Source: Escherichia coli
Lineage (GTDB): Bacteria > Pseudomonadota > Gammaproteobacteria > Enterobacterales > Enterobacteriaceae
Length of the DNA: 64,000 bases
NCBI RefSeq assembly: GCF_003019035.1
Contig: NZ_CP027447.1
Direction: 5' to 3' (one strand)
Made by a program: the position numbers and the translations under genes. Positions 2,921-37,322 of the stretch are shown here, in pieces; position 1 is the first letter of the stretch, and each line of letters begins with the position of its first letter. The notes beneath the pieces were generated by a model, which was not told the DNA's origin, ran no database searches, and saw nothing but the letters and a program-made list of their open reading frames with translations.

Positions 2921-5392
2921 ATGAGTAAAGTCTTTATTTGCGCCGCTATTCCTGACGAACTGGCAACAAGGGAAGAAGGCGCTGTGGCTGTAGCCACAGC
3001 CATTGAAGCTGGCGACGAACGCCGCGCCCGTGCCAAATTTACCTGGCAATTCCTGGAGCAATATCCGGCTGCTCAGGACTGCGCTTATAAATTTCTTGTC
3101 TGCGAGGATAAACCCGGTATACCCCGCCCTGCCCTCGATTCCTGGGATGCTGAATATATGCAGGAAAACCGCTGGGATGAGGATTCTGCTTCTTTTGTTC
3201 CGGTTGAGAATGAATCCGATCCGATGAACGTCACTTTTGACAAGCTGGCCCCTGAAGTACAGAACGCTGTCATGGTTAAGTTCGACACATGTGAAAACAT
3301 CACCGTTGATATGGTTATTAGCGCACAGGAATTGTTGCAGGAAGACATGGCAACATTCGACGGACATATCGTTGAAGCGTTGATGAAAATGCCAGATGTT
3401 AACGCCATGTATCCGGAGCTTAAGCTGCATGCCATCGGGTGGGTTAAGCATAAATGTAAGCCTGGTGCCAAATGGCCCGAAATTCAGGCAGAGATGAGCA
3501 TCTGGAAAAAACGTCGCGAAGGTGAACGCAAGGAAACCGGAAAATACACGTCTGTTGTTGATCTCGCCCGCGCCAGAGCCAATCAACAGCACACTGAAAA
3601 CTCAGCAGAAAAAATCCCCCCTGTCACTGCAGTCATTCGTCGCGAATACAAGCAGACATGGAAAACACTGGATGATGAACTGGCCTACGCTCTCTGGCCT
3701 GGTGATGTGGATGCCGGAAACATTGACGGCAGCATCCATCGCTGGGCAAAAAATGAAGTTATCGACAACGACCGCGAAGACTGGAAGCGTATCTCGGCAT
3801 CAATGCGCAAACAGCCTGATGCCCTTCGCTACGACCGCCAGACTATTTTTGGCCTTGTTCGTGAACGTCCGATCGACATTCACAAAGACCCTGTGGCACT
3901 GAACAAATACATTACTGAATACCTGACTACAAAGGGCGTGTTTGAAGATGAAGGAAGAAATCAGAGCGCAACTGATACTCTCCCGTCGCCAGTACCAGAA
4001 ACTGATGCAGTGGAAACGGCAATTCTGGACAACGAAAAAACCGAATGCAAAGTGGAAGTCGAACCATCTGTAGAGCGTGAGGGGCCGTTCTACTTACTCT
4101 TCACCGACAAGGATGGCGAAAAATACGGTCGCGCAAACAAACTTTCTGGTCTGGATAAGGCACTGGCTGCCGGGGCTACTGAAATCACGAAAGAAGAATA
4201 TTTCGCCCGCAAAAACGGTACATACTCAGGTTCACAACAAAATACTGGTGCATCTGACACGACCGCACAACCAGGGCCGGTAAAAGTTACCGCTGACGAA
4301 GTAAACAAAATTATGCAGGCAGCCAATATCAGCCAGCCTGACGCCGATGAACTGCTTGCAGTATCACGTGGTGAATTTGTTGCAGGGATTAGCGATCCGA
4401 ATGATCCGAAATGGGTGAAGGGGATTGAAACCCGCGATTCTGTGAACCAGAACCAGCAAGAAACGGAACAGAGCGACCAGAAAGCGGAACAAAACAGCCC
4501 AAATACACAACAAAACGAGCCAGAAACGAAACAACCTGAACCAGTAGTGCAACAGGAACCGGAAAAGATCTGCACCGCCTGCGGTCAGAGCGGTGGCGGC
4601 AACTGCCCTGATTGTGGTGCGGTGATGGGCGACGCAACATACCAGGAAACATTCGATGAAGAGAATCAGGTTGAAGTTCAGGAAAATGATCCCGAGGAAA
4701 TGGAAGGCGCTGAACATCCACACAAGGAGAACCCTGGCGGCAATCAGCATCACGCCAGCGATAATAAAACTGGCGAGGCGACAGATCCCTTAATTAAGGT
4801 GAATGGTCATCATAAGCTCACATCCACCAGCAGAGCGGGGATTCATCTGATGATCGACCTTGAAACCATGGGAAAAAATCCCGATGCCCCGATTATCTCA
4901 ATAGGCGCAATATTTTTCGATCCACAAACCGGAGATATGGGACCGGAATTTAGCAAGACCATCGATCTGGATACTGCTGGCGGAGTCATTGATCGTGACG
5001 TCATTAAATGGTGGCTGAAGCAATCACGTGAGGCGCAGTCTGCCATTATGACCGATGAAATCCCGTTAGATGATGCACTACTGCAATTGCGGGAATTTAT
5101 CGACGAAAACTCCGGTGAATTTTTTGTTCAGGTCTGGGGTAATGGGGCCAACTTCGACAACGTGATTTTACGCCGTTCATACGAACGACAGGGTATCCCC
5201 TGCCCGTGGCGTTACTACAATGATCGCGATGTGCGCACAATTGTTGAACTGGGAAATTCCATTGGCTTTGATGTCAGAATGGCTATTCCATTCGAAGGTG
5301 TACCCCACAATGCACTTGATGATGCACGTCACCAGGCAAAACAAGTTTCAGCAATCTGGCAAAAACTGATCCCGAGTCAGGCTGATTTTTAA
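2921..5392 (+). CDS. Prophage exonuclease (823 aa) with C-terminal DEDDh-type 3'-5' exonuclease domain
   Basis: C-terminal motifs IDLETMG, WGNGANFD, HNALDDA; central CxxC-x9-CxxC zinc-ribbon-like motif; Q/E-rich linker; position upstream of xis-int. Confidence 0.6.
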   Translation: MSKVFICAAIPDELATREEGAVAVATAIEAGDERRARAKFTWQFLEQYPAAQDCAYKFLVCEDKPGIPRPALDSWDAEYMQENRWDEDSASFVPVENESDPMNVTFDKLAPEVQNAVMVKFDTCENITVDMVISAQELLQEDMATFDGHIVEALMKMPDVNAMYPELKLHAIGWVKHKCKPGAKWPEIQAEMSIWKKRREGERKETGKYTSVVDLARARANQQHTENSAEKIPPVTAVIRREYKQTWKTLDDELAYALWPGDVDAGNIDGSIHRWAKNEVIDNDREDWKRISASMRKQPDALRYDRQTIFGLVRERPIDIHKDPVALNKYITEYLTTKGVFEDEGRNQSATDTLPSPVPETDAVETAILDNEKTECKVEVEPSVEREGPFYLLFTDKDGEKYGRANKLSGLDKALAAGATEITKEEYFARKNGTYSGSQQNTGASDTTAQPGPVKVTADEVNKIMQAANISQPDADELLAVSRGEFVAGISDPNDPKWVKGIETRDSVNQNQQETEQSDQKAEQNSPNTQQNEPETKQPEPVVQQEPEKICTACGQSGGGNCPDCGAVMGDATYQETFDEENQVEVQENDPEEMEGAEHPHKENPGGNQHHASDNKTGEATDPLIKVNGHHKLTSTSRAGIHLMIDLETMGKNPDAPIISIGAIFFDPQTGDMGPEFSKTIDLDTAGGVIDRDVIKWWLKQSREAQSAIMTDEIPLDDALLQLREFIDENSGEFFVQVWGNGANFDNVILRRSYERQGIPCPWRYYNDRDVRTIVELGNSIGFDVRMAIPFEGVPHNALDDARHQAKQVSAIWQKLIPSQADF

Positions 5393-7794: not shown

Positions 7795-7812
7795 GCGCCC
7801 CGTTCACACGAT

Positions 7813-7888
7813 TCCTCTGTAGTTCAGTCGGTAGAACGGCGGACTGTTAATCCGTATGTCACTGGTTCGAGTCCAGTCAGAGGAGCCA
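7813..7888 (+). tRNA. asnT: tRNA-Asn (anticodon GUU)
   Basis: 76-nt tRNA TCCTCTGTAGTTCAGTCGGTAGAACGGCGGACTGTTAATCCG...GGAGCCA; identical copies at 33015, 34839, 37247. Confidence 0.95.
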
Positions 7889-8049
7889 AATTCAAGTTTT
7901 CATGCTTATCCATACGTCTCTATATGTTTACGATTCAGTAAGTTAGCGTGAAAATCCTTCCCGATGCGTATCTGGTTTTCTCTCCGCATCGGGATAATTT
8001 GGTGGTCAGATCTGGGGTCAGTTTGGTTCGATTCTGGAGTGACCCCCAA

Positions 8050-9312
8050 ATGTCTTTAAACGATTCTAAAATCCGCACGTTAAAACCTTCTTCCCGTCCG
8101 GTAAAACTCTCCGACTCTCACGGTCTGTATCTGCTCGTCAATCCGGGCGGTTCACGCATCTGGTATCTCAAATATCGTTTCAACGGAAAAGAATCCAGAG
8201 TCAGTCTTGGCGCATACCCGCTGGTCTCACTGGCAGAAGCCAGGCAGCAGCGCGACGGTATCCGTAAGCTGCTGGCGCAGAATATCAACCCGGCGCAACA
8301 GCGCATGGCAGAGAAAACTGCCTGCTCTCCTGAAAAGTGCTTTAAGGCGGTGGCGCTGGCCTGGCACAAAACCAACAAAAAATGGTCGGCTGATTATGCT
8401 GCACGTATTCTCGCCAGCATGGAAAATCATATCTTCCCGGCGATTGGTCATCTGCCCGTTGCCACTCTTAAAACGCAGGATTTCACTGCTTTGTTGCGGG
8501 TTATCGAGGATAAAGGCTTTCTGGAAGTCGCGTCCCGAACACGGCAGCAACTCAGCAACATCATGCGCTATGCCGTTCAGCAGGGACTTACCGACAGTAA
8601 CCCAGCGCAGCATCTGGATGGCGTTGTCGCCTCCCCCGTAAAAAATCACTACCCCGCTTTACCGCTGGAGCGATTGCCTGAACTGCTTGACCGCATTGGC
8701 GACTACCGGCAGGGCCGGGAGTTAACCCGGCTGGCGGTGGTGCTGACGCTGCACCTGTTCATCCGCTCCAGCGAACTGCGTTTCGCCCGCTGGAGCGAGA
8801 TCGATTTCAGGCACAAAATCTGGACCATCCCCGCCACCCGCGAAGCCATCGACAAAGTACGGTTTTCCGATCGTGGCGCCAAAATGCGTAGTCCGCATAT
8901 CGTGCCGCTCTCCCGCCAGGCCATTGCCATTCTGAAACAGATACAGGAACTTTCCGGTCATCTGGATCTGGTGTTTCCCGGTGATCATAACCCGTACAAG
9001 CCAATGAGTGAAAACACCACCAACCGGGCGCTGCGCCTGATGGGGTATGATACGAAAACTGAAATCTGCGGACATGGACTCAGGGCGATGGCCTGTAGCG
9101 CCCTGGTGGAGTCAGATCTCTGGTCACGCGATACGGTGGAGCGGCAAATGAGCCACCAGGAGCGCAACAGCGTGCGTGCGGCATATGTGCATAAGGCGGA
9201 GCATCTGGAGGCCAGAAAAGCCATGATGCAGTGGTGGTCGGATTATCTGGATGTGTGCCGTGAGGGGTATATTGCGCCGTATATTTATGCCCGGCAGCAT
9301 AAGGCGGCCTGA
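8050..9312 (+). CDS. int: P4-type integrase (tyrosine recombinase, ~420 aa)
   Basis: Start MSLNDSKIRTLK...; C-terminal catalytic region with ...GHGLRAM... and terminal tyrosine segment; adjacent to tRNA-Asn. Confidence 0.85.
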   Translation: MSLNDSKIRTLKPSSRPVKLSDSHGLYLLVNPGGSRIWYLKYRFNGKESRVSLGAYPLVSLAEARQQRDGIRKLLAQNINPAQQRMAEKTACSPEKCFKAVALAWHKTNKKWSADYAARILASMENHIFPAIGHLPVATLKTQDFTALLRVIEDKGFLEVASRTRQQLSNIMRYAVQQGLTDSNPAQHLDGVVASPVKNHYPALPLERLPELLDRIGDYRQGRELTRLAVVLTLHLFIRSSELRFARWSEIDFRHKIWTIPATREAIDKVRFSDRGAKMRSPHIVPLSRQAIAILKQIQELSGHLDLVFPGDHNPYKPMSENTTNRALRLMGYDTKTEICGHGLRAMACSALVESDLWSRDTVERQMSHQERNSVRAAYVHKAEHLEARKAMMQWWSDYLDVCREGYIAPYIYARQHKAA

Positions 9313-9343
9313 ATCAGAAATAACGTAAATCATTAAAAATGTA

Positions 9344-9380
9344 AAAGCAGATCCTGATTGACCGGGATCTGCTTTTTTGT
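9344..9380 (+). terminator. Rho-independent terminator of the P4-type int gene
   Basis: Stem aagcagatcc / ggatctgctt followed by TTTTTT. Confidence 0.6.
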
Positions 9381-9430
9381 ATTGAGAGGTATTGCCGTTG
9401 TTTTTTATTATTATCAATCAGAAAGTATCT

Positions 9431-27267: not shown

Positions 27268-28383
27268 TCATATTCTCGCCAAAACACTTTTTAATGCCTT
27301 TGCGAATTCATCCAGACTTATATTGTCAATTTTTTGCCCAACGACGACTGACTCCGAAACATCGGCCATTGCTGGCCATCGCGTTTTGTAATCAGCATAA
27401 ATTGCAACAACGGGGGTATTATAGGCACTTGCCATATGTAATATTGAGGTGTCAGGAGTTATTGCGATATAAGCATCTTTTATGATTGCTGCTGAACGTT
27501 TAATCGAGGGTGATAAGGATAAACGGTAGACATTATTATAACAATCCACTAACACCCTGGCTTTTTCTTCCCCTTTTGGTCCATGAACGATCACTATTGG
27601 TATATCTGTTTCACTTTGAATTTTTTCTATTAGATTTTCTGCAATCGATAATGAAAATGTACGTTCCTGCGAGCTACCTTCTAAATTAAGCGCAATGTAA
27701 GATCCTAACGATCGCATTTCCTCGCGCACCTCATCGAGTACATCCTTACTTAGTGGCAATTCATATATTGGCCTGACTGCTGGAAAACCCGCCTCACGCA
27801 TCATAAATGCCCATGTCATGGGCACAGGAGCCCGGAGATTCTGATCCATCCGGGACGCGCTCTTACACAAAGGGGAATAGCACTTCATGGTTAAACCAAC
27901 AACCTGAAAATTCGTTTTTGCTTTCAACTGACTGATAAATATCATCGTTTTCAGGTTCTTTTTACGCATCGCCTCTATACAAAGATCCGGCGTACCGTAT
28001 TGCTGTGTTATGTTCTTCGCTAAATCTTTTATTTCTTTTAATGTTGCGTGATCCTGCATAGTCATTGTGACTAATGTTAATTTAGTCTGTTCAAGTTTGA
28101 GCGCATTAAAGACTTCTAAATTAATTGTCGACGTAACAATTAAAAGATGCTTAATTTTATGCAATTCAAGCGCCCGAATAACTGGAAAGATGGCCATAGC
28201 ATTGCCAATCTGATCGGGAATATGGATAACAACAAACTCTGTTTTTTCAATATTGAAATTAAAAGCTTTATAATCGTAGTAACTAAATGCAATACGTCTC
28301 AACAATGATGCTAAAAACATAACTAACCCCGCTTCCCTACTGGTTATAATGCAATGCAGTTTATCAGACTCATCAGGGCGCAA
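27268..28383 (-). CDS. yeeL: Glycosyltransferase family 9 (heptosyltransferase-like) protein, intact
   Basis: 371-aa ORF (likely start MFLASLLRR at 28320); GT9-like C-terminal region; convergent with yeeJ. Confidence 0.65.
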   Translation of the reverse strand: MRPDESDKLHCIITSREAGLVMFLASLLRRIAFSYYDYKAFNFNIEKTEFVVIHIPDQIGNAMAIFPVIRALELHKIKHLLIVTSTINLEVFNALKLEQTKLTLVTMTMQDHATLKEIKDLAKNITQQYGTPDLCIEAMRKKNLKTMIFISQLKAKTNFQVVGLTMKCYSPLCKSASRMDQNLRAPVPMTWAFMMREAGFPAVRPIYELPLSKDVLDEVREEMRSLGSYIALNLEGSSQERTFSLSIAENLIEKIQSETDIPIVIVHGPKGEEKARVLVDCYNNVYRLSLSPSIKRSAAIIKDAYIAITPDTSILHMASAYNTPVVAIYADYKTRWPAMADVSESVVVGQKIDNISLDEFAKALKSVLARI

Positions 28384-28634
28384 TTTTGTGCATATGCGGA
28401 CTTTTATGTTTCATATCTCGAATCTGTGGATCCTCTGCTTAATCCTTAAACAACACCAGAAACTCCTGCGCTTTCATCTTCCATCGAATTTTTCATGTTG
28501 CCGTTAATCAGCCATAAAATCATTTGCAGATGCGCTCTGTCGAGGTAGTCTCATAAGGTTCGTTTATAGATCGACGGCAATGTGAGTTACCTTTTCCATA
28601 CTAATTATAAAAAGACAGTACAAACAGGATCATT

Positions 28635-29951
28635 ATGGACTCCACGCTCATCTCCACTCGTCCCGATGAAGGGACGCTTTCGTTAAGTCGCGCCCGACGA
28701 GCTGCGTTAGGCAGTTTCGCTGGTGCCGTCGTCGACTGGTATGATTTTTTACTCTATGGCATTACCGCCGCTCTGGTGTTTAATCGCGAGTTTTTCCCGC
28801 AAGTAAGCCCGGCTATGGGAACGCTCGCTGCATTTGCCACCTTTGGTGTCGGATTCCTGTTCCGTCCGCTCGGCGGTGTCATTTTCGGTCACTTTGGCGA
28901 CCGACTGGGACGTAAGCGCATGTTAATGCTGACCGTCTGGATGATGGGCATCGCGACAGCCTTAATTGGTATTCTTCCTTCATTCTCGACCATTGGGTGG
29001 TGGGCCCCCATTTTACTGGTGACGCTGCGTGCCATTCAGGGATTTGCCGTCGGCGGCGAATGGGGAGGCGCGGCGTTACTTTCCGTTGAAAGTGCACCGA
29101 AAAATAAAAAAGCTTTTTACAGTAGCGGTGTACAAGTTGGCTACGGAGTAGGTTTACTGCTTTCGACCGGACTGGTTTCATTGATCAGTATGATGACGAC
29201 TGACGAACAGTTTTTAAGCTGGGGCTGGCGCATTCCTTTCCTGTTTAGCATCGTACTGGTACTGGGGGCATTGTGGGTGCGTAATGGCATGGAGGAGTCC
29301 GCGGAATTCGAACAACAGCAACATAATCAAGCGGCCGCGAAAAAACGCATTCCGGTTATCGAAGCACTATTACGGCATCCCGGTGCTTTCCTGAAGATTA
29401 TTGCGCTACGACTGTGCGAGTTGCTGACGATGTACATCGTTACCGCCTTCGCACTTAATTATTCAACCCAGAATATGGGGTTACCGCGCGAACTTTTCCT
29501 CAATATTGGTTTGCTGGTAGGTGGATTAAGCTGCCTGACAATTCCCTGTTTTGCCTGGCTTGCCGATCGTTTTGGTCGCCGCAGAGTTTATATCACAGGT
29601 GCGTTAATCGGAACGTTGAGCGCATTTCCTTTCTTTATGGCGCTTGAAGCACAATCTATTTTCTGGATAGTTTTCTTCTCCATAATGCTGGCAAACATTG
29701 CGCATGACATGGTGGTGTGTGTGCAACAACCGATGTTTACCGAAATGTTTGGTGCCAGTTATCGCTATAGTGGCGCTGGAGTCGGATATCAGGTTGCCAG
29801 TGTGGTTGGCGGTGGATTTACACCTTTCATTGCCGCTGCACTTATCACTTACTTTGCCGGGAACTGGCATAGCGTCGCTATTTATTTGCTGGCTGGATGC
29901 CTGATTTCCGCAATGACCGCTTTGTTGATGAAAGACAATCAACGCGCTTAA
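28635..29951 (+). CDS. shiA: Shikimate transporter (MFS)
   Basis: 438-aa 12-TM MFS protein; conserved position upstream of amn. Confidence 0.85.
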   Translation: MDSTLISTRPDEGTLSLSRARRAALGSFAGAVVDWYDFLLYGITAALVFNREFFPQVSPAMGTLAAFATFGVGFLFRPLGGVIFGHFGDRLGRKRMLMLTVWMMGIATALIGILPSFSTIGWWAPILLVTLRAIQGFAVGGEWGGAALLSVESAPKNKKAFYSSGVQVGYGVGLLLSTGLVSLISMMTTDEQFLSWGWRIPFLFSIVLVLGALWVRNGMEESAEFEQQQHNQAAAKKRIPVIEALLRHPGAFLKIIALRLCELLTMYIVTAFALNYSTQNMGLPRELFLNIGLLVGGLSCLTIPCFAWLADRFGRRRVYITGALIGTLSAFPFFMALEAQSIFWIVFFSIMLANIAHDMVVCVQQPMFTEMFGASYRYSGAGVGYQVASVVGGGFTPFIAAALITYFAGNWHSVAIYLLAGCLISAMTALLMKDNQRA

Positions 29952-33014: not shown

Positions 33015-33090
33015 TGGCTCCTCTGACTGGACTCGAACCAGTGACATACGGATTAACAGTCCGCCGTTCTACCGACTGAACTACAGAGGA
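33015..33090 (-). tRNA. asnW: tRNA-Asn (GUU)
   Basis: Exact reverse complement of the asnT sequence; no island attached. Confidence 0.95.
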
Positions 33091-34838: not shown

Positions 34839-34914
34839 TCCTCTGTAGTTCAGTCGGTAGAACGGCGGACTGTTAATCCGTATGTCACTGGTTCGAGTCC
34901 AGTCAGAGGAGCCA
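34839..34914 (+). tRNA. asnU: tRNA-Asn (GUU)
   Basis: Identical 76-nt sequence; followed by terminator hairpin aagcccgc / gcgggctt and T-run. Confidence 0.95.
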
Positions 34915-37246: not shown

Positions 37247-37322
37247 TCCTCTGTAGTTCAGTCGGTAGAACGGCGGACTGTTAATCCGTATGTCACTGGT
37301 TCGAGTCCAGTCAGAGGAGCCA
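37247..37322 (+). tRNA. asnV: tRNA-Asn (GUU)
   Basis: Identical 76-nt sequence; upstream leader identical to asnT; terminator hairpin follows. Confidence 0.95.

Follow-up and report, generated by a model that had tools for sequence, protein, structure and literature searches.

The open yeeL frame of an Escherichia coli lineage encodes a putative GT9 glycosyltransferase with asparagine at the predicted catalytic-base position

The yeeL gene of Escherichia coli is flagged as a pseudogene in K-12, while in other strains it is annotated as an intact glycosyltransferase of family GT9; both facts are already contained in public annotation. We analysed a 64,000-nucleotide stretch of E. coli DNA (hereafter the window), in which yeeL is open, and for which the original prediction proposed that the strain might retain a surface-glycosylation function that K-12 has lost. 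What our analysis adds is a single detail, an apparent lineage-specific loss of the catalytic aspartate, which runs against that functional proposal.

The yeeL frame in the window and across E. coli

The ORF listing of the window contains one uninterrupted frame on the minus strand, 27268..28383, which has 371 amino acids when read from a TTG as the maximal frame. The real coding sequence is most likely 27268..28320, encoding 350 amino acids, because all homologues begin at the Met encoded at 28320 and RefSeq uses that ATG. Between 27100 and 28650 the window is 100% identical to E. coli SCU-301, where RefSeq begins the gene at the ATG at 28320 and describes the product (WP_096987174.1, 350 amino acids) as 'glycosyltransferase family 9 protein'; GGGAAGCGGGG is found 6-16 nt upstream of this ATG. 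The coordinates first proposed for the gene, 27268-28383, thus apply to the maximal ORF, and as limits of the coding sequence they should probably give way to 27268..28320. The relevant features of the locus are as follows.

27268..28320, minus strand, stop codon included: yeeL coding sequence, predicted GT9-family GT-B glycosyltransferase, 350 amino acids (ORF, SCU-301 RefSeq entry, PF01075, AlphaFold model with pLDDT 85)
28321..28383, minus strand: in-frame upstream extension of 21 codons to the TTG, part of the maximal ORF and probably untranslated
28201..28203, minus strand: codon 40, corresponding to the catalytic-base Asp of GT9; it reads AAT (Asn) in the window and GAT (Asp) in almost every other E. 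coli
27616..27618, minus strand: codon 235, CAA (Gln) in the window; TAA (stop) in K-12, BL21, C and relatives
27451..27453, minus strand: codon 290, Asp of the PDTSILH donor-binding motif, kept in the window copy; equivalent to WaaC D261 and invariant in the homologue alignment
27027..27054, plus strand: hairpin and T-run terminator of yeeJ (12-bp stem with 6 GC pairs, then TTTT), within the 260-bp gap between the convergent genes
19025..27007, plus strand: yeeJ-type inverse autotransporter adhesin gene (context; not the same system as yeeL)
28635..29951, plus strand: shiA, shikimate transporter gene, divergent neighbour of yeeL (context)

In the homologue alignment both the N- and C-termini of YeeL match orthologues from five genera, and the truncation relative to full-length relatives that might have undermined the original prediction was not seen. 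An intact GT9 frame of about 350 amino acids is accordingly borne out by the single open frame, by these termini and by a PF01075 match above the cut-off, and the convergent arrangement with yeeJ was also correctly described, the yeeJ-type gene lying tail to tail with yeeL.

In BW25113 the orthologous coding sequence is flagged by RefSeq as a pseudogene with an 'internal stop'. When aligned codon by codon, the K-12 and window genes are both 1053 nt long and differ by 38 nt (~96% identity; 95.6% nucleotide identity across the wider 1551-bp locus), with no frameshift or deletion, and the only nonsense codon in K-12 is Q235* (CAA>TAA), a lesion that the window copy does not have. The original prediction had the K-12 gene as a 'split pseudogene'; it is indeed disrupted, the split amounting to one in-frame nonsense codon in a gene of the same length. 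Hence the K-12 pseudogene resembles the window copy in locus and length, but combines TAA235 with Asp40 where the window has CAA235 and Asn40.

Alleles were counted in 5426 complete E. coli genomes using 55-mers centred on the variable base, so that each 28-nt megablast seed must span that base. Q235* was present in at least 771 of the 5426, including K-12 derivatives, BL21, C, C600 and some wild isolates, and CAA235 in at least 1720; these 55-mers resolved 2491 of the ~5340 genomes concerned, nearby SNPs breaking the 28-nt seeds in the rest. yeeL DNA as such was present in 5268-5342 of the 5426 genomes. As a supplement we took 12 genomes without the K-12 allele, evenly spaced along the nucleotide match ranking; 11 have an intact 350-aa yeeL ORF and the twelfth, LR-48, has a different stop, at codon 60. 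The ranking also included copies split by IS1 in ETEC H10407 and two other strains, together with one truncated and one absent copy. Among proteins, the 90%-identity cluster that contains the 350-aa form comprises 10,923 distinct member sequences, and truncated forms from Shigella sonnei, labelled 'partial' by their source, are abundant in the database. By a rough estimate, the frame remains open in about two-thirds of E. coli genomes. An intact yeeL is therefore the usual state in E. coli and does not set the window strain apart, while the gene has been lost repeatedly and independently through nonsense codons, IS1 insertions and deletions.

Length also varies among copies that are annotated as intact. 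Many E. coli alleles encode 346 amino acids, owing to an in-frame deletion of four codons (VLDE) in a linker at ~195-198 (window ~27727-27738, minus strand), and a 341-aa form is without nine residues near 95-103.

Predicted fold, active site and the substitution at codon 40

YeeL matches PF01075 (Glyco_transf_9) at 31.7 bits, compared to a gathering cut-off of 22 (E=1.3e-7), over residues 207-321, that is, in its C-terminal half only. A PDB sequence search with the single protein returned nothing significant, and a profile search reached WaaC only at E=7e-4. Wider relationships emerge from structure and profile comparison. An AlphaFold2 model built from a 30-sequence alignment (mean pLDDT 85.4, pTM 0.83) has a predicted GT-B fold that is closest to solved GT9 structures; its best Foldseek matches in the PDB are all full-length GT9 proteins, namely 3TOV (E=5e-14), WaaF (1PSW) and WaaC (2GT1, 2H1H and 6DFE), the top ten consisting of these entries plus one GT9-like plant NDH subunit, and more distant GT-B enzymes rank after the GT9 structures. 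Comparison of the YeeL alignment with E. coli WaaC, WaaF and WaaU by hhalign gave a probability of 94.9% (E=4.6e-8). The putative active-site residues correspond as follows.

YeeL G215 / S216 / R220: WaaC T187 / T188 / K192 (HMMER)
YeeL D290 / T291 / H295: WaaC D261 / T262 / H266 (profile alignments)
YeeL H-I-P-D-Q-I-G-[D40]: WaaC T-S-S-M-G-D13 (profile alignments)

Both hhalign and HMMER align PDTSILH of YeeL with VDTGLSH of WaaC, and the C-terminal donor-binding residues (G215, S216 and R220; D290, T291 and H295) are invariant or nearly so among homologues. In HepI and HepII, K192, D261 and H266 bind heptose (10.1101/2021.06.16.448588; 10.1101/2022.06.13.495986). From these correspondences we infer that YeeL is very probably a GT-B glycosyltransferase of family GT9 that uses ADP-heptose and an Asp40 base, the donor being deduced from membership of the family and from no more than four or five aligned residues.

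Identity as an LPS core heptosyltransferase I, II or III, or as RfaQ, was considered and rejected, since YeeL scores far below the NCBIfam equivalog cut-offs (TIGR02193, 39.2 against 185.3 bits; TIGR02195, 19.9 against 134.6; TIGR02201, 17.3 against 170.2; RfaQ NF007742, 15.6 against 467) and its gene lies outside the waa cluster. The acceptor domain is unlike that of any characterised GT9 member. Residues 142-162 (window ~27835-27897, minus strand) are the one stretch modelled with low confidence (pLDDT about 40), and are nevertheless among the most conserved in the family (GLTMKCYSPxCKxASRMDQxxRAPVPMTW), with three nearly invariant cysteines (114, 147 and 152) in or near the loop; this region may bind the acceptor, or may be a metal or disulfide site.

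The window copy departs from its family at position 40, where codon AAT specifies Asn and K-12 has Asp. Asp occupies this position in 29 of 29 other aligned homologues, down to 24% identity, in all 88 database cluster representatives containing the motif, and in each of 13 other E. coli copies translated. Counted by centred 55-mers, the Asn40 allele occurs in two of 5426 genomes (SCU-301 and E7-1N7), and the Asp40 allele in at least 5056. The exact N40 protein is found on 102 public contigs, so a sequencing error is not the explanation, and the alleles nearest to the window yeeL, only 4-5 nt away, carry GAT, which identifies D40N as a recent G>A transition.

Position 40 is matched to the catalytic Asp of the LPS enzymes by two routes: hhalign pairs YeeL 30-VVIHIPDQIGN-40 with WaaC 3-VLIVKTSSMGD-13, and HMMER pairs the same motif with G12-D13 of WaaF. 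The equivalence of D40 and WaaC D13 rests on these profile alignments and on identity of the motif. Mutagenesis implicates Asp13 as the catalytic base of HepI, and the residue is conserved in HepI-III (10.1101/2021.06.16.448588; 10.1101/2022.06.13.495986); substitution of the equivalent Asp in TibC (D110A) gives a catalytically inactive enzyme (PMC4358343). The N-terminal Gly-Asp motif that supplies the base is thus present in the YeeL family and missing from the window copy, which bears on the activity of that copy and not on its ancestry. Judged from these alignments, N40 YeeL is probably a strongly impaired enzyme. Replacement of Asp with Asn lowers activity but need not abolish it in every glycosyltransferase, and another residue could serve as base; an open N40 frame on 102 contigs fits residual function as well as it fits recent loss.

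Conservation, genomic context and the possible role of YeeL

E. albertii, Pseudocitrobacter, Erwinia and Rosenbergiella encode full-length YeeL orthologues of 52-73% identity that share long invariant motifs. Outside this clade similarity drops sharply, an Elusimicrobiaceae protein at 82 bits being an example of the next relatives. The family is a tight GT9 clade restricted to Enterobacterales, distinguished by particular invariant motifs in the acceptor domain and by a flexible, cysteine-containing loop that is conserved. Median pairwise dN/dS among 14 E. coli yeeL alleles is near 0.22, which, with the cross-genus orthologues and their invariant motifs, argues that yeeL encodes a real protein, subject to purifying selection in genomes that retain it. 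Its GC content is 38.7%, compared to about 50% in the flanks, and the gene was possibly acquired horizontally. On comparative evidence we regard yeeL as a real, conserved but dispensable accessory gene for a predicted enzyme. Outside the E. coli arrangement, orthologues were found in six contexts.

Erwinia persicina: an MFS transporter gene immediately upstream
Rosenbergiella: likewise an MFS transporter gene immediately upstream
Pseudocitrobacter: flanked by shiA and mtfA
Escherichia lineage with 73% identity: flanked by hchA and mtfA
E. albertii: yciA-ompW region
A sixth genome: flanked by maeB and the eut operon

No inverse autotransporter gene lies near yeeL in any of these six, adjacency to yeeJ being restricted to E. 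coli, and in every context examined yeeL is a monocistronic orphan. Four of the seven contexts place an MFS transporter gene beside it: in Erwinia and Rosenbergiella the transporter gene (401 and 389 aa) precedes yeeL on the same strand, and in E. coli and Pseudocitrobacter it is shiA, transcribed divergently; the paired genes span 8636-11113 in locus L003, 8678-11050 in L004, 8479-11053 in L005 and 27268-29951 in the window. The 73%-identity YeeL (P0043; loci L007, L008 and L009) comes from some genomes labelled E. coli, in which the gene stands in opposite orientation between hchA and mtfA, without yeeJ and without hprRS, msrPQ or zinT between; these genomes may represent a cryptic Escherichia clade in which the region has been rearranged.

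Within E. coli, a simple scan gave no convincing sigma-70 promoter in the yeeL-shiA spacer, the sole minus-strand match lying inside the first yeeL codons. An Rfam scan of 26500-29000 found no RNA family, and hence offers no riboswitch or sRNA explanation for the long spacers. The literature searched contained no functional study of yeeL; its only use there is as a neutral pseudogene integration site in K-12.

The reading that we favour, at a probability of about 0.7, is that YeeL is a stand-alone cytoplasmic GT9 enzyme, that the frame in the window is complete, and that D40N leaves its product weak or dead. Homology with WaaC and WaaF suggests that a nucleotide-sugar, most likely ADP-heptose, would be bound in the C-terminal Rossmann domain through G215, S216 and R220 together with D290, T291 and H295, and the acceptor in the N-terminal domain, whose conserved basic residues point to an anionic acceptor. 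Asp40 of HIPDQIGDAM would serve as general base, activating the hydroxyl of the acceptor for inverting transfer; its replacement by Asn40 would remove the base from a full-length protein, leaving it catalytically weak or dead. D40N would then add to the several ways in which E. coli has repeatedly inactivated this dispensable gene. The sequences of the K-12, B and C lineages carry Q235*, the window frame is complete, and a recent G>A transition has given it Asn40; the consequences for catalysis are predicted from homology.

The proposal that this strain retains a surface-glycosylation function lost from K-12 does not survive this comparison: an intact frame is common, D40N is present and nothing links the protein to a surface protein target. 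Retained activity is doubtful because D40N falls at the GT9 catalytic-base position, where Asn occurs in two of 5426 genomes. We consider it unlikely that the intact gene is fully functional here, with Asn40 tolerated and surface glycosylation provided that is absent from K-12, even though the frame is complete with orthologue-matching termini, the donor-site residues D290, T291, H295, R220 and S216 are all kept, the N40 allele is maintained as an ORF on 102 contigs and yeeL overall is under purifying selection (dN/dS near 0.2). The Asp that Asn replaces is otherwise universal in the YeeL family and in GT9, mutation of its equivalent abolishes TibC activity, and HepI mutagenesis points to it as the base; moreover, D40 alleles are only 4-5 nt away, leaving too little time for further decay to show. 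Somewhat less probable again is that no E. coli has a functional yeeL, the gene being an AT-rich relic of horizontal acquisition that is possibly silenced, in which case the open frame would be irrelevant. The low GC content relative to its flanks, the recurrence of independent lesions, the failure of a simple scan to detect a promoter and the lack of any phenotype or study in the literature searched would agree with such a state, but dN/dS near 0.2 within E. coli, the strong conservation of motifs among orthologues (52-73% identity) that come from at least five genera and occupy different chromosomal sites, and intact copies in roughly two-thirds of E. coli genomes indicate that selection maintains the protein.

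The adjacent adhesin suggests another role, in which YeeL would be the dedicated glycosyltransferase of YeeJ, in the manner of TibC with TibA or Aah with AIDA-I. In E. coli yeeL and yeeJ lie side by side in tail-to-tail orientation, and GT9-like heptosyltransferases are known to modify autotransporters (PMC4358343); even so, we think this role very improbable, and rejected it on context, distribution and missing features of the bacterial autotransporter heptosyltransferases (BAHTs). Adjacency is absent from the six other contexts, and convergent genes with a terminator between them do not form an operon. An intact yeeJ occurs in ~40% of E. coli genomes (PMC5595812), compared to the 5268-5342 of 5426 that contain yeeL DNA, and in K-12, despite its yeeL pseudogene, the YeeJ of MG1655 is exported to the surface and promotes biofilm (PMC5595812). 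In BAHTs an N-terminal beta-barrel of ~97 residues precedes the catalytic domain (PMC4358343), whereas in the YeeL model one helix is predicted to lead directly into the Rossmann strand, 29-33, that bears the catalytic motif. TibC further has an iron finger, a C-lobe insertion with four cysteines, C339, C342, C358 and C370 (PMC4358343); YeeL has only four cysteines in all (114, 147, 152 and 259), none of them beyond 259, and no such finger. No TibC chain appeared in PDB sequence searches at E<=10 or among the top 50 Foldseek matches.

The yeeJ-type gene of the window encodes ~2660 aa (2685 aa from an upstream TTG), compared to 2358 aa in K-12 (7077 nt). Two length variants of yeeJ are known, the long, UMN026-type variant carrying a 906-bp insert (PMC5595812); the size difference matches this insert, and the window gene is probably of the long type. 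In K-12, yeeJ directly follows asnT (PMC5595812). In the window a ~10-kb island (~7,800-18,100) lies between them, directly downstream of the tRNA-Asn gene (7813-7888). As annotated in the identical strain SCU-301, it contains a tyrosine recombinase, a second integrase-domain protein, an HTH protein and an RHS element core protein of ~1260 aa (~13,640-17,420), followed by two small ORFs that may be immunity genes. Three more tRNA-Asn (GTT) genes with an identical anticodon (33015-33090, minus strand; 34839-34914, plus strand; 37247-37322, plus strand) flank yeeO and cbl-nac, so that, counting asnT, 30 kb contain four asn tRNA genes, any of which could serve as a site of island integration.

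More tentatively, the YeeL clade might modify an acceptor outside the canonical LPS core pathway, such as a conditional side-branch of the core, another anionic glycolipid or a protein, a suggestion to which we attach a low probability. If it were true, the intact D40, D40N, Q235* and IS1-split copies would constitute a ready-made allelic series for finding that acceptor. For the window strain itself there is little consequence, thousands of E. coli genomes having an intact yeeL in their annotation. That a frame is open does not show that its product works, as the window copy, which has lost its expected general base, illustrates, and searches for the product would be better conducted with a D40 allele, such as the copy of O157:H7 or 55989, than with K-12 or the window lineage.

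Comparison with characterised heptosyltransferases

BAHTs such as TibC and Aah recall YeeL and its locus in the GT-B-like core of a heptosyltransferase, in the use of Asp as general base and in the position of their genes beside that of an adhesin (PMC4358343). YeeL differs in having neither the N-terminal beta-barrel, the beta-hairpin thumb nor the four-Cys iron finger, in that its adhesin adjacency is not conserved, and in having no detectable match to TibC by sequence or among the top 50 folds. The best structural match to YeeL, 3TOV (E=5e-14, TM 0.71), is an uncharacterised GT9 protein of Veillonella parvula, which is only 15% identical, belongs to a different phylum and brings no functional information.

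The closest characterised relatives are the LPS enzymes WaaC and WaaF (CAZy GT9; 2GT1, 2H1H, 6DFE and 1PSW). Their GT-B fold matches the YeeL model over its full length (Foldseek E of 1e-11 to 1e-12), and the YeeL family shares with them the N-terminal G-D catalytic motif, the C-terminal D-T-x-x-x-H donor motif and the S/T...K/R contacts to phosphate and heptose. YeeL is only 11-15% identical to them, and is encoded by an orphan gene between yeeJ and shiA, whereas the waa cluster (rfaF, rfaC, waaU) is elsewhere on the chromosome. Its acceptor domain bears invariant motifs of its own, DLCIEAMRKKN and SRMDQxxRAPVPMTW, and the conserved loop 142-162, and the window copy differs further from WaaC and WaaF in having Asn in place of their catalytic Asp.
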